Below are positions 4,511 to 60,743 of a DNA stretch of 64,000 bases, one piece after another. Position 1 is the stretch's first letter; each line of letters begins with the position of its first letter. The stretch lies in the NCBI GenBank assembly GCA_038251135.1, contig JBBSBR010000001.1:512-64511 (forward strand), given 5' to 3'. A program made the translations under genes and the position numbers. The notes under the pieces were generated by a model. The model was given only the letters and a program-made list of their open reading frames with translations. It made no database searches and was not told the DNA's origin. This DNA comes from Candidatus Saccharimonadia bacterium (lineage in GTDB: Bacteria; Patescibacteriota; Saccharimonadia; UBA4664).

Positions 4511-4523
4511 GAATCCCCTGTTT

Positions 4524-38873: not shown

Positions 38874-39093
38874 CTCTCACATCGGAAGTCGAGTTTCTCC
38901 CAACCTACGAAAATATGCCTAATTTACGCCCAGATTAACCACGAACGCGTAGCCGGCCAGCAGAAATGAAAACAGCCAGACACCCCATCGGTAATTTTTG
39001 TACGGATTGTGAGTCAGCTTGTGGATATACTTCTCTATGATCGTCAGAACTGCATAGGTTACGACAAGAGTCGCGATGGCGGCCAAAGCCGCG

Positions 39094-39516
39094 TTAAGCA
39101 TCGGCCTTTACGTCCCCGCCCAGTCCGAGCTTGGAGTTGATGAGATCCAACACCTGCCGGGGCGTCATTTCGGCCTTCACCAGGTACTCCGCACCGTACG
39201 ACATAGCCCGTTTGCGGTCGGCCTCCTGAGAGGAGTTCGTGAGTACGATGACCGGCATCGTCGCAAAATCAAATCCGTCGCTCTGGAGTGCACCCAGCAC
39301 GTCGAGACCGGAGAGTTCGGGCATGTTGATGTCGAGAACCGCGAGGCTCGGGTGGTCGACCTTGACGCAGTCGAAGGCGTCTTTGCCGTTGGTTTTTAAA
39401 ATTACGGTAAAACCCGCACTCTGGAGCTTAATTTCGTACATGCGCGAAATAAACGGGTCGTCCTCGGCGATCAGGATTATCTTGCCTTGGCCAATTTGTG
39501 GATCTAGTTCGGTCAT
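39094..39516 (-). CDS. Single-domain response regulator (CheY-like receiver).
   Basis: IAEDD. Phospho-acceptor LDINMP. VLTNSS. KAEMTP conserved Lys region. Confidence 0.75.
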   Translation of the reverse strand: MTELDPQIGQGKIILIAEDDPFISRMYEIKLQSAGFTVILKTNGKDAFDCVKVDHPSLAVLDINMPELSGLDVLGALQSDGFDFATMPVIVLTNSSQEADRKRAMSYGAEYLVKAEMTPRQVLDLINSKLGLGGDVKADA

Positions 39517-39526
39517 TAATGCCTTT

Positions 39527-41689
39527 TTAAGTCTTAGGTTGAGTTACGGCTTTGAGCGGTAGTTCGAAACCAAACGTTGAGCCTTTGCCTTCAACGCTGT
39601 CAAAGATAATTGTACCACCTTGGTCGTTAATTACACGCCGAGCCAGATACAGGCCCAATCCGGTACCGTCCGGCCGAACCGTTTGGGCATTCTCGGCCCG
39701 GAAGAATTTGCTGAAGAGCTTTTTGCGGGCCTTCTCGGGCACACCGATGCCCGTGTCTTTGACTTCCAACCGTACCGAATCGCCGATACTCTCGAGCGTC
39801 AAGGTCACGTTCCCCTCTTTAGTGTAATAAATTGCATTGTCGATGAAATTCATTACCACTTGGCGCGTCTTATTCTCGTCCAGCTCAACCATGGGGATGG
39901 GTTTGGTTGGAGGCGTGAATATCAGCTCAATATTCTTGGCGGTGGCGTGCGACATGAGCTGCCGCACCTCATCCCGAATCATCGCCTCCATATCCGTGGG
40001 TTTGGCCTGTATCAGGAAGCGGCCGGCCGACAGGCGCGAAACGTTCAATAGGTCGGAGATGAGGTTGACCATGCGTTCCGAGGCACCGAAGGCAAAGTCC
40101 ACAAATTCCCGTTGGGTCGGCGTAATTTCGCCGGCGTCGCCGTCGAGAATCATCGACAGATAGCCCTTGATGGTCGTGAGCGGCGTACGCAACTGGTGCG
40201 AGGCCATACTTATGAACTCGTCTTTGGCCTTATCGAGTTCCTGCAAGTGCCGGTTGGCCACGCGGATACGGCTAGTGGCATGATCCACCCGGGCCTGCAA
40301 CGTCTTATTGAACTCCTGGATCTCGATGTAGGCCTTGGCATTCAAAATTGCCACGGCCAGCTGCTTCACGACGATTTCAAGCAACTCGATGTCTTGTTTC
40401 GAGTAGTTTTCGCCCGAGAGCTTGTCGCCAAGGAGTAGATAACCCACGAATTGTTCGCGGGTACGAAGCATTAATGCGACCCGGATACCATGTGCATCCA
40501 TGAGCTCTCGATTACTATTCGTTACCGCCAGCTCATCGGCAATCGAGAGCGACTTATCGAGTTTCTTCATCTCCGGGCCTACCATCAGTCTATCCGGCAC
40601 CTTACCGTGGTGTTCTACGCGATAGATTCGATCATTATCGAAGATTGCCAACTGCGCATATTGAATATGGATATCGGTCGAGAGCGTACCCAGACTGCGT
40701 TTGAGAATCCTATCGAGATCAAGCTCAGAAACTAGAATTTTTGAAAAGTTATTGAGTACATCCTGCGAGTCGTAATGGTCGTGATAAAAGAACTTATCCG
40801 TCATCTTGTCGGTGAATTTCCGGATCGGCTGGAAGGTAAAAGCCAAGAGGATAGCAAGTGCCGTCGCAGTGATGCTCTGGGCCATACGAGAACCATCGGT
40901 CGGGAAGATTAGGATCGATACCGCCAAGAAAACGGCTCCGTAGAGGGCAGCTAAGATTAGCGTCAGGAGCAGGTAGGCAACCGAGCGGGCCACCAGCGCT
41001 CGCATTTCGAAGAGTCGATGCTTAACGATGGCGTATGTAATGGCACCAATGAGCGCCAGCGTCGCATATGGCCCTACTCCGACAAAAGCGTAGTTACTTA
41101 AGACGAGCGGGATGACTAGATTCATGAAGAGAATAAGCGTGAAGGAGATGAGAATACCCGCCACCACATACTCATAACGAACTTTTGCAGCGCGCTCCTT
41201 GGTCCGCTTGATCGAGAGTATGAAGATCGGCAAGATCAAGCCGAAATACGATACCAAGTAAAATGCGTACAGGGGACTTAAAGGCCCAAAGACAATGCTA
41301 TAGACCCCGTCGGCGCTCTGAGTAACGCCGCTTACGATTAGATTCGTAAGTGATGAGGCTAGTATAAAGATCGTGAAAGAACCGAGGACGATGATTATCC
41401 ACTGAGACAACTTCTCGTAGAGACCGGTGAAATGCAGACTGAACATTAAGGCAAAATAGGCGCACAATACCGGAAAGATAAATACCGCCTTATTAATAAG
41501 TAAAATCTGTGTATACCCTAACCCGTCGGCATTGCTGAAATAGTTCGCTATCAACCAACCTATTATTCCTAATACGAGACCAAAAAAGTAACGGTTTGCC
41601 CAGTCGGATCGACTCTTCTGCAATACAAACAGACCCATCACAAAATGCGTCAACGACAGTAGTAACAATAGGATCAGCGCTAATTTCAT
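39527..41689 (-). CDS. Sensor histidine kinase with an N-terminal polytopic (about 7-TM) domain, GAF, HisKA and HATPase_c domains.
   Basis: H-box SMASHQLRTPLT. N-box and G-boxes (DTGIGVP, GTGLGL). Seven N-terminal hydrophobic helices. Confidence 0.8.
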   Translation of the reverse strand: MKLALILLLLLSLTHFVMGLFVLQKSRSDWANRYFFGLVLGIIGWLIANYFSNADGLGYTQILLINKAVFIFPVLCAYFALMFSLHFTGLYEKLSQWIIIVLGSFTIFILASSLTNLIVSGVTQSADGVYSIVFGPLSPLYAFYLVSYFGLILPIFILSIKRTKERAAKVRYEYVVAGILISFTLILFMNLVIPLVLSNYAFVGVGPYATLALIGAITYAIVKHRLFEMRALVARSVAYLLLTLILAALYGAVFLAVSILIFPTDGSRMAQSITATALAILLAFTFQPIRKFTDKMTDKFFYHDHYDSQDVLNNFSKILVSELDLDRILKRSLGTLSTDIHIQYAQLAIFDNDRIYRVEHHGKVPDRLMVGPEMKKLDKSLSIADELAVTNSNRELMDAHGIRVALMLRTREQFVGYLLLGDKLSGENYSKQDIELLEIVVKQLAVAILNAKAYIEIQEFNKTLQARVDHATSRIRVANRHLQELDKAKDEFISMASHQLRTPLTTIKGYLSMILDGDAGEITPTQREFVDFAFGASERMVNLISDLLNVSRLSAGRFLIQAKPTDMEAMIRDEVRQLMSHATAKNIELIFTPPTKPIPMVELDENKTRQVVMNFIDNAIYYTKEGNVTLTLESIGDSVRLEVKDTGIGVPEKARKKLFSKFFRAENAQTVRPDGTGLGLYLARRVINDQGGTIIFDSVEGKGSTFGFELPLKAVTQPKT

Positions 41690-41742
41690 TGCAGTACGTT
41701 CAGTATAACAAAAAACTTATGCTTTAAGCGCAAACTCGGTAT

Positions 41743-42624
41743 CTACATCTTATCGTAACGGCCGAGATAATTATTTACGGCCGCCACCGCGAGCGACCAC
41801 CGATGGTGCCATACCGGGTGGCGAATTATCCGCCCACGATGTTCCTTGGCGTCGAAGTAGAAGACGGTCGGCGCAGCAGGGAGTATATTTCTGCCGCCGA
41901 GGAAGTTCAGAATCTGCGTTGATATCAAAGCCGCACAGATCCCTACGGCTGGAGCAATCGCGGGCACGTCAATCCCCCTCGTCGATACTCGCCGTAGTAC
42001 GGAAAGGTCACCGTATGAGGGAACATGTGGTAACCAGCGAGCGATGTCGACGCCTACCTGCTCGCTCTTAAGTTCAGCTAGGGTCACATTCGACTTGAGC
42101 CCAAAGTATCGCTCATAGGTCGATCCGCTCGGGTCGAACCAGGTTATGGTAGCGCCGTAGCCAATTTCGACGCCCATTATGACAGGGATGCTTGCCTCGC
42201 GCGCGCGCCTGGCGATCATCACCCCGAGGTGTGGCAACATGAAATCCGTCGCCTCCACAATACAGGTTGCGTCTGATATAAACTCTTCAATATTTGCCTC
42301 ATTAACTCCGTCGGTAAGGAGCTCAATCTCGACTTCCGGATTAATATCACGGCATAGCTCAGCGATCACTTCAACCTTTGGTCGACCAAGCGTGCTAAGG
42401 TATGCCCCTTCCTGCCGATTGAGGTTCGTAGCCGTAAAGTTATCCGGATCGGCGAGTCGCAGTTTCATACAACCGAGCCGAACTAACTCGGTTGCTACTC
42501 GTCCGCCAACTCCCCCTACGCCTGCAATAACGATGCGCGCATCAGCTAACTTCATCTGCTGGATCGGACTGATAAATCCAACGTTTCGCGAGTATCGTTC
42601 CTGAACAGTAGCATGCTGCTTCAT
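41743..42624 (-). CDS. ThiF/MoeB/HesA-family E1-like adenylyltransferase.
   Basis: Rossmann ATP-binding IVIAGVGGVGG and RLADPDNF...NLNRQ E1 signature. ATGA overlap with the upstream gene. Confidence 0.75.
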   Translation of the reverse strand: MKQHATVQERYSRNVGFISPIQQMKLADARIVIAGVGGVGGRVATELVRLGCMKLRLADPDNFTATNLNRQEGAYLSTLGRPKVEVIAELCRDINPEVEIELLTDGVNEANIEEFISDATCIVEATDFMLPHLGVMIARRAREASIPVIMGVEIGYGATITWFDPSGSTYERYFGLKSNVTLAELKSEQVGVDIARWLPHVPSYGDLSVLRRVSTRGIDVPAIAPAVGICAALISTQILNFLGGRNILPAAPTVFYFDAKEHRGRIIRHPVWHHRWSLAVAAVNNYLGRYDKM

Positions 42625-43418
42625 GCCGGTAATTCACCCTTAAAGATGGATAACCGCTTTAATTCGGCGACATGCTGAGGCGTCAGCAGGTCGGGGTTTA
42701 ATCCTCGAACGAAGAATTTAACTAACTCAAGTTTCATGGTGCGACGAAGCGGATTAATACCGCGGGCAGCCTTCATGATCGCGCCCAGTGATTGATGTAC
42801 CTCTAAAGCTGCTGGTATAACCTCGCTGCCCATATAAACCGTAGGCTCGCCAATCTGTGTCAGCGCATCACCAAACATAAACTTCAATTGGGAGTAAACC
42901 TGGGCGTCGCAGGCCATGAGCCATAATTGATGACCCGATCGCACAGAATGCTGCCACATTGCACGATACAGGAGGAGTGCAGCATAAGAGCTATGACCTC
43001 GATGTTTGGCGAGACCGGAAATCTCCACGCAGTTCAATGGGTCGAGTGATTTTATGGCTGCCAGATCTTTCGGATAGAGTGGTAATTTCTCAATTGTCGG
43101 AAATGACATATGACCCTTCTGTGAATGAACTGTGATTTGCCGTGCCGTTGCAACAACTTCTGAATTGCCATCCGCGATATGGTTTACGATGAAATAGTCG
43201 GCATGCTCCTGATAGGGATCGGAGTCAATAGAAATACGGCCGTCTTCGGTGAGATGGTGCTCCTCGATGAACTTTCGCTCAAGATAGACCTTGGCATGAA
43301 GCCTTTGAGCAACTCTGAGAAGATACTCTTCCGTCACGAAGCTCACTTGGTAGCGTGTATCGGTTCCTTCACGCAGATCTGTGCGGAGTGAGATCAGTTT
43401 CTTAATTTTGCGAATCAT
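42621..43418 (-). CDS. Putative LuxI/FeeM-like (autoinducer-synthase superfamily) N-acyltransferase. The ORF opens at 43445 with TTG, but the likely start is the ATG at 43418.
   Basis: RLHAKVYLERKFIEEH...DPYQEHADYFIV...ATARQI resembles the R-x-R-x-VF/Y ... DxYD ... GT-x-RL core of N-acyl amino acid/AHL synthase-like proteins. I am matching this from memory only. Confidence 0.4.
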   Translation of the reverse strand: MIRKIKKLISLRTDLREGTDTRYQVSFVTEEYLLRVAQRLHAKVYLERKFIEEHHLTEDGRISIDSDPYQEHADYFIVNHIADGNSEVVATARQITVHSQKGHMSFPTIEKLPLYPKDLAAIKSLDPLNCVEISGLAKHRGHSSYAALLLYRAMWQHSVRSGHQLWLMACDAQVYSQLKFMFGDALTQIGEPTVYMGSEVIPAALEVHQSLGAIMKAARGINPLRRTMKLELVKFFVRGLNPDLLTPQHVAELKRLSIFKGELPA

Positions 43419-43597
43419 ATCCGATGAGCCTTTCGAGAGGCACAAAATTACCGATGGAGCTAAGGAGCTCAGCGGCTATTAATCTCATATACGTTTGTTT
43501 ATTTTGTCTTGATTTCATGTTGTTAGAGCAGAAAGATTGGCTAATGCAATACTTATGTTTTATCATAATAAGTAATTAACGTAAACATAAAAAGACG

Positions 43598-44248
43598 ATG
43601 GAACCAGATACAACACCGACAGCCGCAACTCAGGCTTTACGAATACCGATGCCGAATGACCGATACGTTTACGGAACGCAGATAGTAGTCCGTGGAATCG
43701 TTACGATCATACGACTCCTCCTCGCGAGGTTGGTTATAGTCGATATAAAAACCGAACAACTCGAACCAGATTGTCGATATCTTTTGGTACCCAACCACGG
43801 GAGCTGGCTTGACCCTCTCGTGATAATGCACCATATCCCGGGCAGCGTTTTTAGGATGCTCGGTCCAATTCGCGTCATCGTAGGTAATCGCCTCCTCGCC
43901 TCACCCCTTAAGCCGTTCATTTTGTCGCTCGGATCATTCCCCGCTAAACCCCACAAGTACTATCGCTCGGGCATAGAGATGGCACAATACTTCCTCGATA
44001 ACGGCGCGCTGCTTGCGATCTTTCCTGAAGGACGCAGAAATGCCAATCGCAGTGTTAAGCCACGCCGCGGTGTGTCCGATCTTGCGAATGCCGAAGACGT
44101 CCGATTGATACCTGTACATATCGAATGGACTCGGCACTTTTTTGGTATGATCCCGACCTACAAAATCCATATTGGCTCTCCGGTAAAAGCCGCGGGTAAG
44201 ACTGCCGAGCAAATCATGGAATACATCTTTGATCTGCCTCTGGCATAA
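43598..44248 (+). CDS. Lysophospholipid (1-acylglycerol-3-phosphate-type) acyltransferase.
   Basis: NHGSWLD (NHx4D) and FPEGRR motifs of the PlsC/LPLAT family. Confidence 0.65.
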   Translation: MEPDTTPTAATQALRIPMPNDRYVYGTQIVVRGIVTIIRLLLARLVIVDIKTEQLEPDCRYLLVPNHGSWLDPLVIMHHIPGSVFRMLGPIRVIVGNRLLASPLKPFILSLGSFPAKPHKYYRSGIEMAQYFLDNGALLAIFPEGRRNANRSVKPRRGVSDLANAEDVRLIPVHIEWTRHFFGMIPTYKIHIGSPVKAAGKTAEQIMEYIFDLPLA

Positions 44249-44311
44249 ACAGCCCATCAATTATATTAAATCGAATTTGGGATTGTCCGGTTCGAACAAA
44301 AGGCTTAAAGT

Positions 44312-44731
44312 GTGAGTATTATGAGCAAAAAGATCAAGATCGCCATTATCGAAGATGACATCGCCATCGTGCAGATGTACCGGACCAAGTTTGAGGCCGA
44401 AGGTTATGAGGTTGAGACCGCGGGCGACGGGTTCACCGGCCTGGAGCTGATTGAGTCGTTTGAGCCCGACATTATCCTCCTGGATTTAATGATGCCCAAT
44501 ATGAACGGGCTGGAGATGCTCCAGAAGCTGCGCAATCAGCCCGGCGGACAGGAGGCCAAGGTGGTCGTGCTCACCAATATGGGCGACACCGAGAGCGCCA
44601 CCAAAGTCTTCAAGATGGCGGCCGACGACTACATCGTGAAGGCCGAAATGACGCCGAAGCAGGTAGCTGAGCGCGTGAAGAGTCTGCTGGTCAAGTTCGG
44701 CATTACCGAAGCCGAGACGCCGGCCGCCTAG
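44312..44731 (+). CDS. Single-domain response regulator (CheY-like receiver). Paralogue of the 39094 receiver.
   Basis: IIEDD. LDLMMP. VLTNMG. KAEMTP. Confidence 0.75.
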   Translation: MSIMSKKIKIAIIEDDIAIVQMYRTKFEAEGYEVETAGDGFTGLELIESFEPDIILLDLMMPNMNGLEMLQKLRNQPGGQEAKVVVLTNMGDTESATKVFKMAADDYIVKAEMTPKQVAERVKSLLVKFGITEAETPAA

Positions 44732-46363: not shown

Positions 46364-46861
46364 ATGAAGAAATTTGGCTTATCACTAATCATTGGGGTCA
46401 TGGCTTTCGGCTTAATCGTGCTGTTGAAATTACAGCCCGGCAAAGCGACTGCCAGCACCGTGTCTTTGGCCTCAACCACCCCCAGCACCGCCGGCACGCC
46501 CGCTCCGAGCACACCTGCGCCGAGCACCCCCGCGCCTAATTCGCCCGCTACGCCCGCACCGGCCGCAACTTCCGGCGGCGCCTTCAAGAATGGTACCTAC
46601 TCCGGCGCTGTCGTCGACAACGGCTATGGATCGGTTCAAGTCGCGGCCGTCATTAGTAACGGCAAGCTGAGCGACGTGAAGATCCTTCAAGTGCCGAACG
46701 ACCGGCGATCAATGATGCTGGCCAGCTACTCTACACCTACCCTGATCCAAGAAGCCGTCTCGGCTCAGAGCGCCAACGTCGATTACGTCAGCGGTGCCAC
46801 CGCCACGAGCGACGCTTTCAGCCAGTCGCTGCAGGACGCCTTGAGTCAAGCCAAGTCGTAG
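46364..46861 (+). CDS. Membrane-anchored FMN-binding domain protein (flavinylation substrate).
   Basis: N-terminal TM helix, Pro/Thr/Ala linker, FMN_bind domain carrying the covalent-flavinylation motif VSGATATS. Confidence 0.7.
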   Translation: MKKFGLSLIIGVMAFGLIVLLKLQPGKATASTVSLASTTPSTAGTPAPSTPAPSTPAPNSPATPAPAATSGGAFKNGTYSGAVVDNGYGSVQVAAVISNGKLSDVKILQVPNDRRSMMLASYSTPTLIQEAVSAQSANVDYVSGATATSDAFSQSLQDALSQAKS

Positions 46862-46876
46862 GGCTACAATACCCTC

Positions 46877-47620
46877 ATGAAGCGCACTGAAGCCATCATG
46901 GGTATGCCGATCACCATCGAGATCATCGGCGAGGACCCTAAAACCGACGAACTCATCACCAGCGGATTTAATGAATTTCGGGCGACTGACGAGCTATTTA
47001 GTACCTACAAACCAACCAGTGAAATTTCCCGCCTGAACCGCGGCGAGTTGACGCGCACAACCGTCTCCCCGACGGTCCGGGAAGTCCTGAAGACCTGCGA
47101 CGAACTCAAGATTAAGACTCAGGGCTACTTCGACATGTCTTATCACGGCAGTCTGGATCCGTCCGGTTACGTGAAGGGCTGGTCGATCGGCCGGGTTGAG
47201 GCGATACTGCGCCAAGGCGGTGCAACCAACTTCGTGGTAAGCGCCGGCGGCGATATGGTCTGCGCCGGACACCGCGCCGACGGCATGCCGTGGGTTATCG
47301 GTATTGCCGATCCGTCGAATCCGAAGCAATCCGTCAAGAACCTGAACTTAAGCGACCAAGCGATCGCCACCAGCGCCACCTACGAACGCGGCGAGCACAT
47401 TTATGACCCGCGCACCGGACTGCCGGCCATCGGACTCGTAAGCGTCAGCGTAGTGGGACCGGACATCGTGACGGCCGACGTTTATGCTACGACGGTCTTT
47501 GCCATGGGCCAGGCCGGCGTCAGCTGGATTCAGGGCCAAGCCGACTACGCAGCCTACATCATCGGCACCGACGGCCAGGCTGTCTTGACGCCCAGTCTCC
47601 AAACTTATATCGCCGCTTAG
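46877..47620 (+). CDS. apbE: FAD:protein FMN transferase ApbE (short form, no obvious signal peptide).
   Basis: GMPITIEI, DPSGYVKGWS, SAGGD and TSATYERGEHIYDPRTG ApbE motifs. Confidence 0.8.
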   Translation: MKRTEAIMGMPITIEIIGEDPKTDELITSGFNEFRATDELFSTYKPTSEISRLNRGELTRTTVSPTVREVLKTCDELKIKTQGYFDMSYHGSLDPSGYVKGWSIGRVEAILRQGGATNFVVSAGGDMVCAGHRADGMPWVIGIADPSNPKQSVKNLNLSDQAIATSATYERGEHIYDPRTGLPAIGLVSVSVVGPDIVTADVYATTVFAMGQAGVSWIQGQADYAAYIIGTDGQAVLTPSLQTYIAA

Positions 47621-48975
47621 CTAAAGTCGAAGCGTTCGCTATGGATCAGGCGGACCGGCAGCCCGGCGGCGTGAAGCGTTTGGCTGACGCCTTCCATCAT
47701 CGGCGGCGGACCGCACAGGTAGACCTCACGGCCGATAAAATCGGGAACCAGGCGCGTCAAAACTTCCGCATTTATGTATTCCTTCGGCTGCGACGGATCG
47801 TCGCTTAAGACGTAATGAACCTCAATGCCATAGTGAGCGACCGCAAGTTCTAGTTCGGATCGAAACGTGATATCGGCGGTAGATCGGGCGCCGTAGACCA
47901 AGACCATATCCGAGACGCCTTCGACCGCCAAGTGCTCAATCATCGCGCGAATCGGCGTAATGCCGATGCCGCCGGCAAGCATGAGAAGCTTATTGGTGCT
48001 GCGCGTCCGCGGCGTAAAGCGTCCGTTCGGGCCGTCGATAATCACGCGCGTACCCGGCTGCAGCTGATTTAGCCTGGCCGAGTAGTCGCCGAGGGTTTTC
48101 GTCGTCAGCCGCAGATATTTGCCGTTGGGGGCTGCCGAGAATGAAAATGGATGCCCCTGCCACCAAAGACCTCGGCTGAGGAAGTACCAGCTCGCAAACT
48201 GACCCGCTTCAAATTTAAAATCCTCAAGCTCTCGGCCAGTCACGTAGATCGAAATAGAATCGGGGGTGTCCTGAACTATCTGCGAGACGACAAACCGATG
48301 ACGCCAAACATTATAAATTGGCGTGGCAAAGCGGTAGATCACGATTATTCCGAATGTTAGGCCGTACAGCAGCGCCCAATAACGGGCATACCACGGGTGG
48401 GTTATAAAGTCCGGCCCGACCGCGATTTGGTGTCCGAAAGCGAGCAGCACCATCGCGTAGGCCGACAGGTGAATCAGATACCAATACTCATACCTTAAGT
48501 ACTTCCTGGCCGCCGCGACCGACAACCCGACAACCGCGATCAGCAGCCCGAACGCCACCGCCGCCTTCCAGACATCGGCATAGTTGGTGATGAAATCAAC
48601 GAACTGCGGAATGTAGGAAGTATTGTAGACAAACGAATACCCGATCGTAATGAAGAGGATGTGCGCCAGGATAGCATAAAACGCCACGTAGCCGTTTATT
48701 CTGTGAATGCGAGTCAAACCGTCCTTACCGAAAGCCCGTTCAAGTACATCGATACGGGCCAGCAGCAAGAGTTGTATCAAGATCAGATAGGTTCCAATCA
48801 GTGCTCCGAGATGGCTGAGAGCAATGGCGGCACTGCCAAAACTTGTGATATGACCCAGCCCCGTCCACCAGATAGCTAGGATGAGGCCCAGGTTTATCAG
48901 AAAAACCGCCGATGCTAACGCTCTTAGGCCGGCGTCGGCACCGCGGAACCAAGTTAGCGGTCTGGTAGCGTTCAT
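47617..48975 (-). CDS. Ferric-reductase/NOX-like membrane flavocytochrome with a ferric reductase TM domain plus FAD- and NAD-binding domains.
   Basis: Paired His in helices (HRINGYVAFYAILAHI, HLSAYAMVLLAFGHQ). HPFSF FAD motif. GGIGITP and CGPPPM NAD(P) motifs. Confidence 0.75.
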   Translation of the reverse strand: MNATRPLTWFRGADAGLRALASAVFLINLGLILAIWWTGLGHITSFGSAAIALSHLGALIGTYLILIQLLLLARIDVLERAFGKDGLTRIHRINGYVAFYAILAHILFITIGYSFVYNTSYIPQFVDFITNYADVWKAAVAFGLLIAVVGLSVAAARKYLRYEYWYLIHLSAYAMVLLAFGHQIAVGPDFITHPWYARYWALLYGLTFGIIVIYRFATPIYNVWRHRFVVSQIVQDTPDSISIYVTGRELEDFKFEAGQFASWYFLSRGLWWQGHPFSFSAAPNGKYLRLTTKTLGDYSARLNQLQPGTRVIIDGPNGRFTPRTRSTNKLLMLAGGIGITPIRAMIEHLAVEGVSDMVLVYGARSTADITFRSELELAVAHYGIEVHYVLSDDPSQPKEYINAEVLTRLVPDFIGREVYLCGPPPMMEGVSQTLHAAGLPVRLIHSERFDFS

Positions 48976-48982: not shown

Positions 48983-50014
48983 TTATGCCTCCACGGCCTT
49001 AGTATTCTCTGAGAGCTTGGCTTCCGGCAGCCGGATCGTCACGGTCGTCCCCACATCCAGCGTACTCTCAATTGCAATGCTGCCGTTATGACGCTCGGCA
49101 ATGGCTTTGGCCAGCGACAAACCCAACCCGTAACCCTGACTTTTTTGCTTCGTCCGCGAGGTGTCGGCCTGATAGAAACGATCGAAAATATGAGGCAGAT
49201 CGTCGGCTGCAATACCGACGCCGTGGTCGCTCACAGCGAGAACGGCCGAACCGTCTTGCGAGGTTGTAGACAAATTAATCACCGAGGCGTCATGACTGTA
49301 CTTAATGGCATTGTCGATCAATATGGCCGCCAGCTCCACCAGACTGGCTCGGTCGCCGATAACCCTGGCGGGTTTGAGATCAGCGGTAATTTTGATACCG
49401 CGATGCCCCGCCGCCTTTTCCAGACGATCACGGGCACTTACGGCAACATCCTCCAGATTCACCTGGTCGAGTTCGAGCGAATTGTCATCTTCTTCATACT
49501 TGGCGAGCTGCAGCAAACCGGTTGAAAGTGACTCCAGCTTGGCAATCTCCTCAAGATTACTTTGCAGTTGGCCCTTCAGGGCACCGACTTCCGGCTTCTT
49601 ATCCCGCAGCATCACCTCGATCTCGGTCTTCATAGCCGTCAGGGGGGTGCGCAATTCGTGCGAGGCATCGGAGGCGAAACGGCGCTGAGCTTCATGCGCC
49701 GCTTCGATCGGCTCCAGGGTGCGCTTGGCCAAAAAGTAGCTGGCGACGCTACCGGCTCCGAGCAAAAAAGCGTCGAAGATGAGCAGATTCATGAGAATCC
49801 GGCGGGATCCCTGCTCCAAACTGTCCTGCATTAAGCCCAAAGAATATGTCGGGTCAAGGCGTTGATCCACTGCAAGCCGATGCGTTTCGCGCAGCAGGCT
49901 GTCGGTCAGCTCATTGGTCGCCACCCGGTAAAAAGCCACGCTAAATAGCACGCAGATTACACCGACCATCAGGACGTACCAAGCAGTCAGGCGTATAGTT
50001 GCCGAACGAAACAT
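48983..50014 (-). CDS. Two-component sensor histidine kinase (TM, HAMP, HisKA, HATPase).
   Basis: H-box SDASHELRTPLT. G-boxes DHGVGI and GYGLGLS. Confidence 0.8.
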   Translation of the reverse strand: MFRSATIRLTAWYVLMVGVICVLFSVAFYRVATNELTDSLLRETHRLAVDQRLDPTYSLGLMQDSLEQGSRRILMNLLIFDAFLLGAGSVASYFLAKRTLEPIEAAHEAQRRFASDASHELRTPLTAMKTEIEVMLRDKKPEVGALKGQLQSNLEEIAKLESLSTGLLQLAKYEEDDNSLELDQVNLEDVAVSARDRLEKAAGHRGIKITADLKPARVIGDRASLVELAAILIDNAIKYSHDASVINLSTTSQDGSAVLAVSDHGVGIAADDLPHIFDRFYQADTSRTKQKSQGYGLGLSLAKAIAERHNGSIAIESTLDVGTTVTIRLPEAKLSENTKAVEA

Positions 50015-50694
50015 TAAGCTTCCACACTCAATTTATAACCAAAGCCGCGCATGGTCTGAATGAGGTTGGGACCCTTGAAAGGACGGTCAATCTTGGTCCG
50101 TAAATAACCGATATAGACTTCCACCGTATTAGGCAGAACCTCGGCGGCGTCGTCCCAGACGTGCGTAATGATATTTTGCTTCGTCAGGGTCTGGTTCTGG
50201 TGGCGCATCATGTATTCGAGCAAGGCATACTCTTTCTGGGAGAGCGGAATCGTCTTGCCGGCGCGAGAAACCTGATAATTGACCGTGTCGAGCTGCAGAT
50301 CATCCAACTTCAGGATATTTCCCAAGCTTTCGGTCGGGCGGCGGAGCAACGCACGCAGGCGCGCCAACAGTTCGTCGAAGGCAAACGGCTTCGCCAAGTA
50401 GTCATCGGCGCCGTAGTTGAGACCCTGTACTTTGTCTTCGATCTGATCCTTGGCGGTCAACATTATGACCGGCGTCTGAACGCCCTCCCGCCTCATCTCG
50501 GAGACGATATCCAAACCTTCGATCATACCGGGGAGCATCCGATCAAGGATCACGATATCGTAATCGGGATCAAGCGCATGTGCCAAACCGTCATCGGCGT
50601 CATAGGCCACGTCGACAGCGTAAGACTCCTGTTCGAGTCCGCGTTTGAGAGCCTGGGCAATCTTAACTTCGTCTTCTACTACCAAGATTTTCAT
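50014..50694 (-). CDS. OmpR/PhoB-family response regulator.
   Basis: Receiver (KILVVEDE, LDRMLP) plus winged-helix (YIGYLRTKID). Confidence 0.85.
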   Translation of the reverse strand: MKILVVEDEVKIAQALKRGLEQESYAVDVAYDADDGLAHALDPDYDIVILDRMLPGMIEGLDIVSEMRREGVQTPVIMLTAKDQIEDKVQGLNYGADDYLAKPFAFDELLARLRALLRRPTESLGNILKLDDLQLDTVNYQVSRAGKTIPLSQKEYALLEYMMRHQNQTLTKQNIITHVWDDAAEVLPNTVEVYIGYLRTKIDRPFKGPNLIQTMRGFGYKLSVEA

Positions 50695-54164: not shown

Positions 54165-55856
54165 CTATTTAACGCGGCTGACCCGGGCAAGAGCCAAAGC
54201 GATTCGCGCGAGTCGGGTGGGCACCCCTTCGTATACGACGTAACGCGGCTGCCATTGGGGCTCAAACTTGGTCTTGAATTGGCGCAACCCCCGAAACGAC
54301 AAAAACGGTTGGTTGATTCGGTAAATCAAATGCAGTAGTTTTTCTTCGAACCGAGTCTCCCCCTCGCCCAACCCCGAGAGCGGCGCCAAGCCCAGATTAA
54401 AAGTTGCCACGCCGCGATCATTCAGGTCGATCAACAGCTTCAGAAAAAGAAAATCCATCAGGTTGCTGGGCGAGTCGGGAACGTAGCGCATCAGATCGAT
54501 ACTGGTCTCGCCGGACGCCGACGCCGGTATCTCGTTGGTGAAGGCCCGTGCCCGACCGGCTTCATCCCGCAGCACGAACAACCGACACTGCTGCATATAC
54601 GCAGTATTAAACGAACCCGCCAAAAAGCCCCATTCCCGCCGGCCGGCATCCCGCCTCCAAGCCCGCGAAATTTCCGTGATCTCGCGCAGCAAGGTTGCGC
54701 TATGCGGCGGAGCATACCAATCGGTGTTATAGCCGGCTTTCGTAAACCGGTTGTTGATGTTGCGAAAATGCTTGTCGTTTGACGTTTTCCCAGCAAAGTT
54801 TGGTACGTCAATGACGGCGTCTTCCCCTATCTTGATGACGCTTAAACCTATCGACTCATAAGCCGGCAAATAATTGTCCGTGGTATAGATAAAGTTAGTT
54901 GTCCAGCCGTGAGTTTGGCAAAACTGCTTAAATTCGCGGAGCAGATCAGGAATAACCGCATCCCGACCCACCGGGTCGCCTAGGCAGAGGGCGATACCCG
55001 ACTCCACGGCATAGGCTATAACTGCCTGGTAACTCGTATCAAAATAATAGGATTTATCACGCGGCCACAGCTTAAAAAAGTCTTCGCTCGTTCGGCTGTA
55101 ATCCGCGATCAGATCCTGCGCCAATTGGCGATCATGAGGCAACGTGCGGTAGCGGTAATCCAGCGGGCGAAACAGACTGTACAGGCCGTACCCGAGCGAG
55201 GCGGCGCCCAGAAAAAATAACGAATCCAGAAACCAGCGTGCCTGATGGGTGTACGGCAGCAGATCAGGGTTGCCGATCAATAGATACGCGTTGATGGTTC
55301 GCTGAAAGGCCTCCCCTAGCGATAATGACACCCCGAAATTTCGTTCACCCATAAAGTAAAACCCGGCCACGCCGTAACCCAGCGTCAACAAAACGCTTAA
55401 ACCCAAGACCAACAAACCCTGCTTGATACTGCGCGATTCGCTTCTCGCGTTGAAATACGGCCGGCATAGCAGAAGTACGATTCCGGCCAACAACGGCCCG
55501 ATCGCGGTAATGTCGGTCGTCGGTCTGAGCAGGCTCACGGCGACCAACAACCAGGCTATAACGGTAGCAATCCACCAAGCCACCAACTTGCGCTGCCATA
55601 ACTGAATCGATACGTACATCAAGACGAAGCCGAGGAACAGGTCGAGCGAACGGGCAAAATCTTCAAAACCAACCGGTGTAATGATGGTTTCGATCCGCTC
55701 TGGCATGCGATGCGCCAACGGGATCATGATCGCCAGCAAGCCGTTCAAAAACACAATTCCCGCGACTAGTTTAACGGTCCACGATTGCAATGCGGCGCGC
55801 GTCATGACGAGCCTTCGGGGCGGGTAAGCCTGATGATGGCCCGGCTCGCCGTCCAC
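54165..55856 (-). CDS. MprF-like aminoacyl-phosphatidylglycerol synthase (polytopic N-domain plus DUF2156/LPG_synthase_C).
   Basis: C-terminal domain with IDLMRY...FNLGLAPLSG and YYFDTSYQAVIAYA motifs typical of DUF2156. Confidence 0.6.
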   Translation of the reverse strand: MDGEPGHHQAYPPRRLVMTRAALQSWTVKLVAGIVFLNGLLAIMIPLAHRMPERIETIITPVGFEDFARSLDLFLGFVLMYVSIQLWQRKLVAWWIATVIAWLLVAVSLLRPTTDITAIGPLLAGIVLLLCRPYFNARSESRSIKQGLLVLGLSVLLTLGYGVAGFYFMGERNFGVSLSLGEAFQRTINAYLLIGNPDLLPYTHQARWFLDSLFFLGAASLGYGLYSLFRPLDYRYRTLPHDRQLAQDLIADYSRTSEDFFKLWPRDKSYYFDTSYQAVIAYAVESGIALCLGDPVGRDAVIPDLLREFKQFCQTHGWTTNFIYTTDNYLPAYESIGLSVIKIGEDAVIDVPNFAGKTSNDKHFRNINNRFTKAGYNTDWYAPPHSATLLREITEISRAWRRDAGRREWGFLAGSFNTAYMQQCRLFVLRDEAGRARAFTNEIPASASGETSIDLMRYVPDSPSNLMDFLFLKLLIDLNDRGVATFNLGLAPLSGLGEGETRFEEKLLHLIYRINQPFLSFRGLRQFKTKFEPQWQPRYVVYEGVPTRLARIALALARVSRVK

Positions 55857-57874: not shown

Positions 57875-60337
57875 TTGACCAAAGAAAAAATTGTTATCGT
57901 CGGCGGAGTCGCCGGTGGCGCAACGGCAGCCGCCCGGGCCCGACGCCTGAGTGAAACAGCCGAAATTATAATTATCGAAAAAGGGCCGTACATATCGTTT
58001 GCCAACTGCGGTTTACCCTATTATATTGGCGGCATAATCAGCGACAAAGACCGGCTGCTCCTGCAGACTCCGGCTGCTATGCGTAAGCGCTTCGGCATTG
58101 ACGCCCGAACCGGACATGAAGTTACCGCCCTGCATCCCTCCAAGAAAACGGTAACCGTCACCGACCTGGCCAGCGGAAAAACTTACCAGGAAACATACAC
58201 CAAGCTGATCCTGGCCACCGGTGCGATCCCGTTTATACCCCCGATCGCCGGTCTCGAAGACGTCGAACATTACGTGCTGCGGGATATTCCTGATTCGGAC
58301 CGAATTAAAACCTTGGTCGACAGCGGCTTGGCGCACCATGTGCTCATCGTAGGCGCCGGCGCGATCTCGTTAGAGTTGGCAGAGAACCTCATAACAAAAG
58401 GTTCGGCGGTCACTATAGTCGAAGCATCCGGCCACGTGTTACCGCAACTCGACCTGGAAATCGCCCGCATCATGGAAACCGAACTCAGAGCCAAAGGTAT
58501 AACCCTACACTTGGGCGCGTCCCTCCAGTCGGTCGGTTCGGACGGCGGCAGGGTTCTGGCAACTCTGGCGAACGGCGAAACGATCAGCGCCGACACACTG
58601 GTGCTGGTAGCCGGGATCCGACCCAACACGGCTCTGGCGAAAGCCGCACATATCACGCTCGATGAACGAGGTCTCATCGTCACCGATACCCGCCTCCGTA
58701 CCTCGGTAAAGACCATTTTTGCGGTTGGCGACAGCATTGCCATACGCGAGTTAGTCAGCGGCAGCCGCGTCAATATTGCTCTAGCCGGACCGGCCAATAA
58801 GCAAGCCCGCGTGGCGGCCGCCAATGCCTTGGGCGGCGACGAAGCCTATTCGGGCGCGCTCGCGACGGCAATCGTGAGCGCTTTTGGGTTGGCGGCCGCC
58901 TCTACCGGACTCAGCTCATTTCAACTCGAAAAGAACGGTCAGGAATTCAGCCAAACGATTATCCACTCAACTTCCCATGCCGGCTATTATCCGGCGGCGA
59001 TGCCGCTGACCGTGAAGTTGCTCTTCGGCAAAAACGGGGAAATTTTTGGAGCGCAGGCTATCGGCCGGGAGGGCGCCGACAAACGCATCGATGTAATCGC
59101 CACCGCCATGCGGGGCCGCATGGACGTCCATGACTTGGCGCGCCTCGACTTAGCTTACAGTCCGCCCTACTCGAGCGCGAAAGACCCGGTCAACATGGTC
59201 GCCTTTACCGCCGAAAATATTCTCAGCGGCCTCATGAAGCCGTTTTCGCACAGCCAATTGCCATCCTTAACGCCGCAAGACGTCTTACTTGACGTTCGCA
59301 CCCCGGAAGAGTTCGACCTCGGCGCCATCAAGGGTGCCGTGAACATGCCCGTGGACGGTCTGCGCGAAAACCTCCACACTCTGCCCAAATCCAAGAAGCT
59401 GTATGTCTATTGTGCCAGCGGGCAACGGTCATATCTGGCTGGACGCATACTCGCCCAGCGCGGTTTCGACTGCTACAACCTGATTGGCGGATACCACACC
59501 TATAAGGACGTATATCTGCAGGAACCGACTGCCGCCGCTCCGACACAAAGCTCCGAACAGTCGCTGGCAGCCGCACCTATCCAGACTCTGACCGTTCCGA
59601 CGGATTCTGAGATAACCGTTACCCTCGACACCTGTGGCCTGTCCTGTCCCGGTCCCCTGCACAAAGTATTTGAAACCGCGAAAAAACTCAATCCGGGCGA
59701 TACGATCAAGGTTACGGCCACGGATCCGGCTTTTGCCAGCGATATCGTTGCTTGGTGCGACCGCACCGGCAATACCTTGCTGCAGCAGAGTACCGACGAC
59801 GGCATCATTACCGCAATTCTGCGCAAAGGCCCGGCAACGCACGCGATTCATATCGATCACGCCGAGAATAACGCCAAAACCTTCATAATCTTTTCCGATG
59901 ATATCGACAAGGTTATCGCCTCGTTCATACTCGCTAACGGCGGAGTCTCAATGGGCCGAGACGTTACCATGTTTTTCACCTTCTGGGGCTTAAACGTCTT
60001 GCGCAAGCCCGGATCAGTTCCCATACAGAAGGATCCAATTTCTCAAGTATTCGGCTTAATGATGCCCAAGGGCAGCAAGCACCTGCACCTGTCGCAGATG
60101 AATATGGGCGGTATGGGCACCTCGTTGATCCGCTGGCTGATGATCAAAAAGAACATCGGCACGCTTGAGACACTCATCCAGCAGGCTAGGGACGGCGGCG
60201 TTCACATGATCGCCTGCTCCACCAGTATGGACATTATGGGCATCAAAAAAGAGGAGCTCATCGACGGGATCGAAATCGGCGGAGTCGCGTCCTATTATAA
60301 TGCCGCCGAACGGGCTGATACGAATCTGTTTATTTAG
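57875..60337 (+). CDS. Multidomain CoA-disulfide/persulfide reductase with pyridine nucleotide-disulfide oxidoreductase, rhodanese, TusA-like and DsrE-like domains. TTG start.
   Basis: FAD motif IVIVGGVAGG and active Cys SFANCGLPY (CoADR). Rhodanese CASGQRS. TusA CPGP. DsrE-like C-terminus. Confidence 0.8.
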   Translation: MTKEKIVIVGGVAGGATAAARARRLSETAEIIIIEKGPYISFANCGLPYYIGGIISDKDRLLLQTPAAMRKRFGIDARTGHEVTALHPSKKTVTVTDLASGKTYQETYTKLILATGAIPFIPPIAGLEDVEHYVLRDIPDSDRIKTLVDSGLAHHVLIVGAGAISLELAENLITKGSAVTIVEASGHVLPQLDLEIARIMETELRAKGITLHLGASLQSVGSDGGRVLATLANGETISADTLVLVAGIRPNTALAKAAHITLDERGLIVTDTRLRTSVKTIFAVGDSIAIRELVSGSRVNIALAGPANKQARVAAANALGGDEAYSGALATAIVSAFGLAAASTGLSSFQLEKNGQEFSQTIIHSTSHAGYYPAAMPLTVKLLFGKNGEIFGAQAIGREGADKRIDVIATAMRGRMDVHDLARLDLAYSPPYSSAKDPVNMVAFTAENILSGLMKPFSHSQLPSLTPQDVLLDVRTPEEFDLGAIKGAVNMPVDGLRENLHTLPKSKKLYVYCASGQRSYLAGRILAQRGFDCYNLIGGYHTYKDVYLQEPTAAAPTQSSEQSLAAAPIQTLTVPTDSEITVTLDTCGLSCPGPLHKVFETAKKLNPGDTIKVTATDPAFASDIVAWCDRTGNTLLQQSTDDGIITAILRKGPATHAIHIDHAENNAKTFIIFSDDIDKVIASFILANGGVSMGRDVTMFFTFWGLNVLRKPGSVPIQKDPISQVFGLMMPKGSKHLHLSQMNMGGMGTSLIRWLMIKKNIGTLETLIQQARDGGVHMIACSTSMDIMGIKKEELIDGIEIGGVASYYNAAERADTNLFI

Positions 60338-60395
60338 CTACGGCACTCATAGCCGCCCCGGCTCTGCCCGCGTACGGAGAGGTTCATGGCTTTAT

Positions 60396-60743
60396 TCATG
60401 ACGCCGCCTCGATATCTTTGAGGCGAGTCCTTAAGAGTTCCGAGATTATGGATTCCGGGATGGGATGATCGGTCGTAAAATGAATTGAACCTTTCGATAA
60501 TTCAAAGCCGCCCAACTGTTCTGCTAAGACCTCGATGGGATGCGATGTCGGAAAGACGCTCAGATGATTTTTGAATGCGGCAAGCCCAATCAGGTACTGC
60601 TTGTGGTATCTGAAGGCCGGTATGCCGTAACTTATGACCTCCTCGGCCTCGGGGACCGCTTTCCGTACGATCTTCCGCACTCGTTCAAGCCCGGCTTTTT
60701 GCGCGGGCGTTACCTGCTGCAGATAGTCGTCAATTGCCGACAT
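60396..60743 (-). CDS. DUF1801 (YdhG-like) protein.
   Basis: Conserved YGIPAFRY...LIGLAAFKNHLSVFP pattern. Confidence 0.6.
   Translation of the reverse strand: MSAIDDYLQQVTPAQKAGLERVRKIVRKAVPEAEEVISYGIPAFRYHKQYLIGLAAFKNHLSVFPTSHPIEVLAEQLGGFELSKGSIHFTTDHPIPESIISELLRTRLKDIEAAS

Follow-up and report, generated by a model that had tools for sequence, protein, structure and literature searches.

A candidate oxidase-less relative of the N-acyl-oxazolone synthetases in Saccharimonadia

The window analysed here, a stretch of 64 kb of DNA from a Candidatus Saccharimonadia bacterium, carries a pair of minus-strand genes (43418 to 41743) for a putative N-acyl amino acid synthase and a ThiF-type adenylating enzyme. 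With modest confidence, we favour the view that this pair is an oxidase-less relative of the N-acyl-oxazolone synthetases, which would provide a kinase-linked lipid-like signal or envelope product; product and signalling role are what we infer. An earlier note on this DNA had placed six open reading frames in the block, and all of them are present at the coordinates given. It had also proposed that the pair makes an acylated or adenylated small molecule, which fits the evidence presented below.

An acyltransferase coupled to a ThiF-type enzyme

The acyltransferase (42621–43418, minus strand) comprises 265 residues when the ATG at 43418 is taken as its start, while the mechanical ORF reaches a TTG at 43445; the recorded product P0001 is 100% identical to the 265-residue version. 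Its AlphaFold model (pLDDT 93.7) has LasI (1ro5), FeeM (2g0b), TofI, MesI and BjaI as top Foldseek matches in the PDB, as the earlier note's comparison with the autoinducer-synthase superfamily had anticipated, and D67, R93 and E132-x-S134 are invariant in the family. The assignment to an AHL-synthase/FeeM fold is thus a prediction from structure, as the sequence matches all stay below their curated cut-offs: FeeM with 24.3 against 27 bits, Acetyltransf_5 with 18.8 against 22.4, and TIGR03694 with 38 against 112. Of the profiles that had been suggested as a check, ThiF matched the partner protein with 137 bits, whereas TIGR03694 remained sub-threshold and Autoind_synth gave no match to the acyltransferase at E<=0.01.

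The ThiF-type gene (41743–42624, minus strand; 293 residues) starts within an ATGA at 42621–42624 that overlaps the acyltransferase stop, so the translational coupling described earlier is visible in the sequence itself. The model that describes this protein best is PRK08223, the oxazolone-cyclase subfamily, which covers nearly its full length. Its score of 196 bits lies under the curated cut-off of 266, and the weak match to the Rv1355c (TrzS) family model reaches 67 bits. As a proxy for the TyzB, TrzS and OxzB reference sequences we used locus L044, which encodes a verified OxzB-like fusion of ThiF with an Rv1355c/Acg-type FMN oxidase and scores 418 bits on PRK08223. Its alignment with the window ThiF spans residues 8–270, including the C-terminal subdomain, at about 30% identity, and its OxzA-like protein aligns with the window acyltransferase in hhalign with 79% probability (E=1.6e-5).

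In a tree, all of 200 bootstrap replicates recover the ThiF subfamily as monophyletic with respect to TcdA/HesA outgroups, and within it the clade of the window protein is separated with good support from the oxidase-associated one. Because of this separation and the sub-cut-off PRK08223 score, the chemistry that follows adenylation could differ from that of the oxazolone systems. The adenylation residues are kept, among them D127, which by motif position (unaligned) appears equivalent to D217 of TrzS, whose mutation abolishes cyclisation (PMC12856293).

Is this then an ordinary E1 enzyme? The earlier note had considered that the pair might turn out to be a common GNAT next to a canonical MoeB or ThiF. 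The former is at odds with the predicted fold, and we rejected the latter: the ThiF, MoeB and TcdA models match only the N-terminal ~150 residues, the scores are far under the ThiF, MoeB and SAMP-E1 cut-offs, and neither a CxxC zinc site nor a conserved cysteine is found in the protein. In line with the earlier reading that a ubiquitin-like or microcin-like substrate is missing, the region 41.6–43.7 kb contains neither a ThiS/MoaD-like ORF nor one of 20 residues or more that ends in GG. That reading had left the E1 substrate open; homology points to the N-acyl amino acid delivered by the upstream enzyme.

A conserved operon with a membrane sensor kinase

The ThiF gene is followed after 53 bp by the gene for a sensor histidine kinase of 720 residues (39527–41689, minus strand). 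The kinase matches HisKA_7TM (39.4 bits), HisKA (62.8) and HATPase_c (90.2), with its H-box at H498 and seven hydrophobic segments in residues 1–266, so that the 7TM kinase of the earlier note stands, but not its GAF domain, whose match is sub-threshold (18 bits against 22.4, E=0.004). Ten bp after the kinase gene lies a stand-alone receiver without output domain (39094–39516, minus strand; Response_reg 71 bits), which in related loci directly adjoins the kinase gene or overlaps it. Its end is overlapped by a gene for a 60-residue protein with two hydrophobic helices (38919–39101, minus strand), which is likely to be the operon's fifth gene and keeps the same position in loci L001, L002 and L107 with 34–37% identity and an invariant W39-G40-x-W42. 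No terminator-like site was found on the minus strand of the operon.

This arrangement extends to relatives. Wherever a related locus has enough DNA, the kinase gene follows the gene preceding it at 13–59 bp, and in most loci the operon genes as far as the receiver are spaced by −26 to +59 bp; two overlaps between ORF calls exceed this range. The order acyltransferase-X-kinase-receiver is kept in all Saccharimonadia loci with enough DNA, which makes the suggested link of the pair to the adjacent kinase plausible. The slot X is occupied by ThiF in nine loci, in all of which it overlaps the acyltransferase gene, by a SAM-methyltransferase in ten and by a small ORF in three; two acyltransferase::methyltransferase fusion proteins were verified (P0197 and P0276). 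As the methyltransferase substitutes for ThiF in sister lineages, a shared role is suggested, in which a lipoamino acid has its carboxylate capped or activated.

On the opposite strand, a PlsC/LPLAT-type acyltransferase of 216 residues (43598–44248, plus strand; PF01553, 53.9 bits) with intact HX4D (H67–D72) and FPEGRR motifs and a single hydrophobic segment at its N terminus is followed after 63 bp by a second stand-alone receiver (44312–44731, plus strand; Response_reg 88.5 bits), found at the equivalent position in most related loci. In all related loci that include upstream DNA, apart from L078 and L102, the PlsC-type gene and the acyltransferase gene point away from each other, and the two form the most conserved pair in Saccharimonadia, whatever the slot contains. 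Candidate roles are a second acylation, the use of an activated intermediate, or phospholipid housekeeping. The intergenic region (43419–43597) is AT-rich, with 34.6% GC, as had been described for a divergent promoter, yet promoter-like matches in it are no more frequent than expected by chance.

A flavin-dependent oxidase was not found within the 64-kb window and is present in one of nine related loci; it could be encoded outside the 64 kb. In locus L011 the PlsC-type orthologue (31% identity) is translationally coupled (TAATG) to a gene for such an oxidase.

With 50.4% GC the block is the lowest-GC 5.6-kb stretch of the window (mean 54.6%; lowest 1.4% of equal-sized blocks), and GC3 is minimal in the ThiF (0.575), acyltransferase (0.49) and PlsC-type (0.525) genes compared to 0.61–0.81 in neighbouring ones. 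The drop reported earlier is therefore real, but its contrast was overstated, as the 6 kb to the left and right have 52.3% and 55.4% rather than about 60%. A (recent) island was considered and rejected, since gene layout and flanking genes are shared with eight other long Saccharimonadia contigs; relatives with acyltransferases of 44–64% identity have the same gene order, flanked by the same housekeeping genes (FolD, LssY_C, polysaccharide deacetylase). The synteny of kinase and PlsC-type genes with the pair is confined to one class, in which synteny of the whole region is high. The window further contains an MprF-like aminoacyl-phosphatidylglycerol synthase (54165–55856).

A possible pathway and its alternatives

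Judging from fold and homology, the acyltransferase would use acyl-CoA or acyl-ACP to attach a fatty acyl chain to an amino acid at its α-amino group, so that an N-acyl amino acid results. A point against it is the acyl donor, as CPR bacteria are generally regarded as lacking fatty-acid synthesis. The subfamily and catalytic residues of ThiF suggest that it would adenylate the free α-carboxylate of this product with ATP, whereupon attack by the amide oxygen would close a 5(4H)-oxazolone and release AMP, with no protein or peptide substrate involved. Because no flavin-dependent oxidase is present, the ring would stay saturated, which would make the product a neutral azlactone, prone to hydrolysis and acyl-donating, instead of one of the known conjugated arylidene-oxazolones. 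Every characterised oxazolone system has an oxidase, and azlactones with a saturated ring are unstable, so that the oxazolone may occur just as an intermediate or may never form. The conserved operon structure suggests that the pair is co-transcribed with kinase, receiver and small membrane protein, and that its divergent promoter region is common to the PlsC-type gene and the second receiver. Most likely, the synthesis of a lipid-like signal or envelope molecule is thereby tied to a dedicated membrane sensor.

Several of these observations could be read differently. In an OlsB/OlsA-type pathway to ornithine, glycine or lysine lipids, the FeeM-fold enzyme would N-acylate the amino acid, the PlsC-type enzyme would add a second acyl chain, and ThiF or the methyltransferase would modify the carboxylate or amine of the head group, leaving kinase and receivers as neighbours or regulators rather than sensors of the product. 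The conservation of the acyltransferase with the divergent PlsC-type gene irrespective of slot content, the intact motifs and membrane anchor of the latter's product, and the sub-threshold match to Acetyltransf_5, the Pfam family of OlsB, all speak for it; OlsG, which methylates the ornithine-lipid head group, offers a precedent for the methyltransferase, and the MprF-like gene at 54165–55856 shows lipid remodelling in this organism. We nevertheless consider it unlikely: no NCBIfam OlsB/OlsA-type model gave a match at E<=0.01, actinobacterial acyltransferase–ThiF pairs occur without any PlsC-type gene, the link of the ThiF subfamily is to oxazolone formation, and the PlsC-type gene could be a simple housekeeping plsC that the high synteny keeps where it is.

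Synthesis of an acyl-homoserine lactone from SAM and an acyl donor, sensed by the 7TM kinase, would agree with the fold common to LasI, TofI, BjaI and MesI. The adjacency of synthase and sensor is typical of CqsA/CqsS- and PhcB/PhcS-type systems. Synteny of LuxI-like and kinase genes has been found computationally in CPR genomes, with Saccharibacteria OGL33891.1 at gene position 598 and kinases at 600 and 602, next to triads of LuxI-like, HdtS (LPLAT) and kinase genes in other CPR phyla (Bernard et al. 2020, PMC7567580). Such LuxI-type quorum sensing seems quite improbable here, as FeeM and Acetyltransf_5 match where Autoind_synth does not, ThiF enzymes of this subfamily work, where characterised, with N-acyl amino acid synthases, and an AHL, which has no free carboxylate, is no obvious substrate for a coupled ThiF or fused methyltransferase. 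Hardly any weight falls on a protein- or peptide-directed E1 with the acyltransferase as accessory, be it with a ThiS/MoaD carrier, in MccB/PaaA-type RiPP maturation or in Cap2/Bil-like defence conjugation. Besides the missing carrier, GG-ending ORF and cysteines and the low scores on the E1 models, neither an E2 nor a JAB partner is present, PADLOC gives no match for the acyltransferase, and the small ORF encodes a two-helix membrane protein that ends in LG-R/K or LGVN and is absent beside actinobacterial pairs.

Comparison with known oxazolone systems

The earlier note had regarded an E1 paired with an AHL-synthase-fold acyltransferase as an undescribed module. It is, however, known with biochemistry from OxzA/OxzB of Pseudoalteromonas rubra (2021; de Rond et al., bioRxiv 10.1101/2020.06.11.147165), TyzA/TyzB/TyzC of Mycobacterium tuberculosis, which make N-acyl tyrazolones (Grigg et al. 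2023, PMC10404671), TrzA/TrzS of mycobacteria and Rhodococcus (Kleetz et al. 2025, PMC12856293) and stieleriacine-type clusters (PMC12479983). In these pairs the acyltransferase generates an N-acyl amino acid, whose carboxylate the ThiF enzyme adenylates and cyclises with ATP to the oxazolone; TrzS with an inactive oxidase forms the saturated cyclised intermediate (PMC12856293).

The Tyz system resembles the window in its separate genes for a FeeM/AHL-synthase-fold synthase (reported structural neighbours of TyzA are FeeM and BjaI; PMC10404671) and a stand-alone ThiF-like, ATP-dependent cyclase of ~290–320 residues, which has no ubiquitin-like substrate and was once mis-annotated as a molybdopterin/thiamine enzyme. 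It differs in the adjacent flavin-dependent oxidase TyzC, which desaturates the amino-acid side chain and has no counterpart in the 64 kb, and no kinase shares an operon with the Tyz genes. OxzA/OxzB and TrzA/TrzS share the two-gene operon with the acyltransferase directly upstream of ThiF, and the OxzB-like ThiF domain of L044 belongs to the same NCBIfam family, PRK08223; OxzB and TrzS are ThiF–oxidase fusions, whereas the window ThiF is a single-domain protein.

Outside Saccharimonadia, the closest relatives of this ThiF (40–44% identity; sister clade with 92% bootstrap) come from Actinobacteria. At 15 such loci (Rhodococcus, including R. erythropolis, Leucobacter, Streptomyces, Nocardia, Actinomyces), the pair overlaps or abuts in most and shares the gene order and the lack of an oxidase, but has no PlsC-type gene, kinase or receiver nearby; the acyltransferases are 23–26% identical to that of the window, and the Rhodococcus copy sits in mobile-element surroundings. 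A further E1-like enzyme without protein substrate or zinc-binding cysteines is TcdA/CsdL, the tRNA t6A dehydratase, which acts on an N-carbamoyl amino acid moiety, adenylating and cyclising its carboxylate. Among solved structures TcdA is nearest to the window ThiF in sequence (63 bits), with a match restricted to the Rossmann part (residues 25–149); the NCBIfam TcdA model reaches 64 bits against a cut-off of 304, and the substrate of TcdA is a tRNA nucleoside.

The synteny of Bernard et al. is apparently the same as that of the window, with the enzyme read as an AHL synthase and the intervening ThiF or methyltransferase and the link to oxazolones or N-acyl amino acids left undiscussed (PMC7567580). 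What sets the present pair apart from the known ones is that it comes without an oxidase in the 64 kb, that its operon runs on through genes for a 7TM kinase, a receiver and a small membrane protein, with a PlsC-type gene on the other strand, and that a SAM-methyltransferase takes the place of ThiF in sister lineages. Wired to a membrane sensor kinase, this oxidase-less variant may make a small lipid signal.

Genes of the block and their neighbourhood

The lower-GC block at 39094-44731 holds all the genes that had been described from the sequence alone, as open reading frames and Pfam matches attest. On the minus strand lie an acyltransferase gene (42621-43418; 265 aa, with the ATG start of the public gene call), the gene of a ThiF-family protein (41743-42624; ORF and Pfam), a 720-aa kinase gene (39527-41689) and a receiver ORF (39094-39516), and the ATGA overlap reported for the first two is seen in the sequence. 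Divergent from them run the gene of a PlsC-type acyltransferase (43598-44248, plus strand; ORF and Pfam), whose motifs are intact, and a second receiver ORF (44312-44731, plus strand). The kinase matches HisKA_7TM, HisKA and HATPase_c, and the GAF domain also ascribed to it stays below threshold. At its end the receiver gene is overlapped by an ORF of 60 aa with two hydrophobic helices (38919-39101, minus strand). This ORF occupies the same position in the homologous loci L001, L002 and L107, at 34-37% identity and with an invariant WG-W core, and is likely to be a fifth gene of the operon that annotation missed. The minus strand contains no terminator-like site from 43.4 to 39.0 kb, and promoter and terminator scans gave nothing beyond chance.

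Loci for comparison came from exact protein look-ups, a reference-genome scan and a metagenome scan, the latter with the narrower alignment A4. Named homologues of the acyltransferase and ThiF proteins belong to Saccharimonadia or Saccharimonadales MAGs. The layout in Saccharimonadia reads receiver and PlsC-type gene in one direction, and acyltransferase, a variable gene (slot X), 7TM kinase, receiver and in some cases a 59-60-aa membrane protein in the other, with junctions of -26 to +59 bp in most loci; the adjacency of acyltransferase and PlsC-type genes is kept across loci. Relatives with an acyltransferase of only 44-64% identity show the entire arrangement again, along with neighbours encoding FolD, LssY_C, a polysaccharide deacetylase and DUF2127. 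The block does have the lowest GC of any 5.6-kb block in the window (50.4% against 54.6% overall), with a GC3 minimum in the ThiF, acyltransferase and PlsC genes; its flanks, thought to reach 60%, lie at 52-55%. Because the arrangement and its flanking genes recur in these relatives, the lower GC is no mark of recent acquisition.

Some features elsewhere in the window deserve mention. At the 4-kb scale the lowest GC, 47.4%, is found at 60001-64000 and lies under that of the block. Just past FolD/LssY_C, genes for an FMN_bind lipoprotein-like protein, a flavin transferase (ApbE) and a membrane oxidoreductase of ferric-reductase/NOX-like type cluster at 46364-48975, followed by a second kinase/regulator pair (48983-50694). 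An MprF-like protein with an N-terminal membrane region (54165-55856, minus strand; LPG_synthase_C, 240 bits) suggests phosphatidylglycerol aminoacylation in this Saccharimonadia (CPR/TM7) bacterium. Finally, in an 820-aa protein (57875-60337, plus strand) rhodanese, TusA and DsrE-like domains are fused to a pyridine-nucleotide disulfide oxidoreductase, which makes it a sulfur-handling protein of the CoA-disulfide-reductase type.

The acyltransferase and its ThiF partner

Profile searches with ThiF, TIGR03694 and Autoind_synth models had been proposed as a check on the pair. They placed the second protein in the ThiF family; for the acyltransferase all sequence matches are sub-threshold (FeeM 24.3 bits, Acetyltransf_5 18.8 bits, TIGR03694 38 bits), and Autoind_synth (PF00765) leaves the window protein unmatched at E<=0.01, whereas the FeeM and Acetyltransf_5 models match it. 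PF00765 is weakly matched by some of its relatives and by an OxzA-like protein. The AlphaFold model (pLDDT 93.7) finds its best PDB matches in LasI, FeeM, TofI, MesI and BjaI, and the residues invariant in the family, D67, R93 and E132-x-S134, stand at what we take to be the positions of the DxYD, R and ExSR motifs of LuxI/FeeM enzymes. Judged by this predicted fold, the protein would be an N-acyl amino acid synthase of the FeeM/AHL-synthase type, encoded by a gene that overlaps the ThiF start codon.

Among the relatives of this acyltransferase, many (P0282, P0291, P0303, P0310, P0334 and others) are 420-545 aa long and carry a C-terminal extension of about 200-280 aa without a Pfam match. Among these long proteins the extension is a methyltransferase or Pfam-unmatched and never a ThiF domain. 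The 989-aa PRK14852 family was considered as a triple fusion of acyltransferase, ThiF and oxidase, and no such protein turned up. A subgroup of 35-39% identity (L083-L100) adjoins PUFA-synthase-like polyketide synthases with KS, AT and FabA domains (for example L099 2481-10360 and L093 2315-5938) and an MFS transporter; its surroundings lack PlsC, ThiF and kinase genes, and it probably originates in non-CPR soil bacteria.

The ThiF protein keeps the residues for nucleotide binding and adenylation (GVGGVGG at 35-41, D59, N67/N69/R70, K83, D127) and lacks a CxxC zinc motif or any conserved cysteine. Among NCBIfam models PRK08223 fits it best by far (196 bits across residues 5-264, under the cut-off of 266); the best structural match of the protein is AclA (PDB 9egb). 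PRK08223 is passed at 418 bits by the OxzB-like protein of L044, a locus in a Cellvibrionaceae genome that serves here as proxy for OxzB and on which our comparison with OxzB-type systems rests. This 662-aa protein combines a ThiF domain with an Rv1355c/Acg-type FMN oxidase, and its gene is preceded by one matching Acetyltransf_5, FeeM and Autoind_synth. Its alignment with the window ThiF spans residues 8-270 (30% identity), and the acyltransferase family aligns with its OxzA-like neighbour at an hhalign probability of 79%.

Canonical cofactor biosynthesis and a protein- or peptide-directed E1 function both fail their defining tests. ThiF, MoeB, SAMP-E1 and TcdA models cover only the N-terminal half of the window protein, at 39-99 bits; ThiF models reach 84-99 bits where their cut-offs lie at 152-275, MoeB models 39-72 bits where at least 266 are required. 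A canonical MoeB/ThiF in a cofactor operon, which the earlier note had named as one part of the refuting case, is contradicted by these scores and by the neighbourhood, which contains no thiamine or Moco genes. Nor is there a CxxC motif or a GG-ending ThiS/MoaD partner, and the reported absence of any such ORF held when the pair was checked. The 60-aa ORF was rejected as an E1 substrate, being a two-helix membrane protein without a GG tail that is missing from the actinobacterial pairs. For a RiPP enzyme of the MccB/PaaA type, no candidate precursor adjoins ThiF and the N-terminal extension is absent, with MccB and PaaA aligning from their residues ~87-125 onward to window residues 6-21. For anti-phage E1-E2 systems (CBASS Cap2, Bil, 6A-MBL), PADLOC gives partial matches confined to the Rossmann part, at <=53 bits, and none for the acyltransferase or the PlsC-type protein; since these are generic E1 matches only, the defence reading was dropped.

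Partner exchange, phylogeny and the missing oxidase

Directly after the acyltransferase and before the kinase, slot X is occupied by ThiF in nine loci, by a SAM-methyltransferase in ten and by a small unknown ORF in three (L075, L078 and L102; 129-149 aa, without a family match). Loci with a methyltransferase in the slot make up about half of the related ones (L003, L004/L005, L076-L081, L084, L090, L101), and two natural acyltransferase::methyltransferase fusions occur (P0197 and P0276). This same-slot exchange, together with the fusions, argues that ThiF and methyltransferase both act on the product of the acyltransferase, plausibly on its carboxylate.

In a distance tree (neighbour joining, 200 bootstraps) the ThiF subfamily is monophyletic in 200/200 replicates and divides into three clades: an oxidase-associated one (98%), one joining Saccharimonadia and Actinobacteria (92%, with 96% for each of the two groups) and one of Dehalococcoidia and Firmicutes (100%). 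The window protein is thus separated from the oxidase-linked clade. Members of the third clade have neither an acyltransferase nor an oxidase partner and no consistent neighbours; these PRK08223-like proteins (L040-L070) come from Dehalococcoidia, Syntrophomonadaceae, Peptococcaceae and Fibrobacter. On the actinobacterial side (Rhodococcus erythropolis, Leucobacter, Streptomyces, Nocardia, Actinomyces) the acyltransferase and ThiF genes show the same order and overlap, without oxidase, PlsC gene or kinase. The Rhodococcus erythropolis pair (L006-L008) looks mobile, since it sits among resolvase, mercury-resistance, GmrSD and restriction genes. In Leucobacter (L009, L010) the pair adjoins a GGDEF-EAL protein, which recalls the c-di-GMP genes beside trzAS in M. 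tuberculosis.

Because Pfam misses the flavin-dependent oxidase (FDO) domain even in L044, we searched for it with full-length NCBIfam models and a jackhmmer profile built from L044 residues 296-662. The Pfam search for a nitroreductase partner over 23.8-60.3 kb had returned none with models that cannot recognise this oxidase domain. The L044-seeded profile finds 17-18 homologues in other loci and recovers the FDO genes beside stand-alone ThiF in Geobacter, Nitrospirota, Acidobacteriota and related loci. The 64-kb window yields no match, nor do L001-L010, L107-L110, the actinobacterial loci or eight other Saccharimonadia loci of the ThiF type. Between 1 and 23.8 kb, window ORFs of at least 150 aa were covered by the oxidase, ThiF, acyltransferase and PlsC profiles, and those window ORFs that Pfam left unassigned were not matched by the NCBIfam Acg or Rv1355c models either. 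The sole exception in Saccharimonadia is L011, whose FDO is nearer the Acg (Rv3131) family than the OxzB/Rv1355c type. At 3459-5116 (minus strand) of L011 the gene of this oxidase and the PlsC-type gene are translationally coupled (TAATG), an arrangement reminiscent of the reported link between such oxidases and lipid acyltransferases.

Predicted chemistry and characterised systems

What might such a pair make? We propose that the acyltransferase N-acylates an amino acid, that ThiF would then adenylate the carboxylate of this N-acyl amino acid at the expense of ATP, and that the activated product may then cyclise to a saturated 5(4H)-oxazolone or be captured by a different nucleophile. In the sister lineages methylation would replace the ThiF step. 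Pair, polytopic kinase and receiver appear to be co-transcribed, which resembles the synthase-sensor cassettes CqsA/CqsS and PhcB/PhcS and suggests a role in signalling, by analogy and from synteny within one class only.

The main alternative is an amino-lipid pathway like that of OlsB/OlsA. In its favour, the acyltransferase and PlsC genes are the most conserved element of the loci; the actinobacterial acyltransferase-ThiF pairs, however, do without a PlsC gene, and no OlsBA-specific model was matched. Another alternative is AHL synthesis of the LuxI type, as proposed by Bernard et al. 2020 (PMC7567580). The acyltransferase model has its fold in common with LuxI enzymes, but the window protein goes unmatched by PF00765, and such a system is unlikely because an AHL offers the coupled ThiF no carboxylate. 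In the most far-reaching reading, the oxidase-less pair would make a labile, neutral, ring-closed lipoamino acid as a diffusible signal for the co-transcribed 7TM kinase. The product would be a saturated azlactone or, with homoserine as the amino acid, an acyl-homoserine lactone closed by ATP-dependent lactonisation in place of the LuxI/SAM route. We regard this as a long shot. If it were true, Saccharimonadia epibionts and actinobacterial hosts carrying the sister pair would share a chemical language, and the lineages with a methyltransferase would produce this signal as its methyl ester.

On the main reading, the oxidase-less clade would add saturated azlactones, or other lipoamino acids with an activated carboxylate, to the known chemistry. 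Wired to a membrane kinase, a receiver and a PlsC-type acyltransferase, the Saccharimonadia clade offers a testable link between oxazolones and signalling, and its sister group lies in the Actinobacteria, the host phylum of cultivated Saccharibacteria. Candidate genes for "LuxI-like quorum sensing" in CPR can be reinterpreted, and the defined five-gene operon could be introduced into a heterologous host. For annotation, ThiF genes of this subfamily that are labelled molybdopterin or thiamine adenylyltransferases are not cofactor enzymes.

The earlier note held that an E1 paired with an acyltransferase of AHL-synthase fold was undescribed. This is wrong: the Pseudoalteromonas rubra pair OxzA/OxzB (bioRxiv 10.1101/2020.06.11.147165), the M. 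tuberculosis enzymes TyzA/TyzB/TyzC (PMC10404671) and TrzA/TrzS (PMC12856293) have been characterised biochemically, homologous clusters occur in Planctomycetota and Pseudomonadota (PMC12479983), and the L044 proteins align with both proteins of the window. Bernard et al. 2020 (PMC7567580) likewise described kinases in synteny with LuxI-like genes in CPR, among them a Saccharibacteria genome where the spacing is the same. Both this synteny (2020) and the pairing of the enzymes (2021-2025) are already published; our literature search found no report of the oxidase-less ThiF clade or its presence in Saccharimonadia, of the exchange between ThiF and methyltransferase, or of the sister relationship to actinobacterial pairs.

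In the Oxz, Tyz and Trz systems the acyltransferase N-acylates an aromatic amino acid with acyl-CoA as donor, and the ThiF enzyme or domain catalyses ATP-dependent cyclisation to an oxazolone (bioRxiv 10.1101/2020.06.11.147165, PMC10404671, PMC12856293). By homology to them the window ThiF, whose substrate had been called unknown, most probably acts on the N-acyl amino acid that the enzyme encoded upstream makes. In TrzS the D217A exchange abolishes cyclisation, and when only the oxidase is inactivated the saturated cyclised intermediate is formed (PMC12856293). Natural N-acyl oxazolones were discovered in 2021-2025, and every characterised pathway has an oxidase and uses aromatic amino acids. 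Unlike the window pair, which has no oxidase within 64 kb, OxzAB, TyzACB and TrzAS have theirs fused to ThiF or adjoining it.
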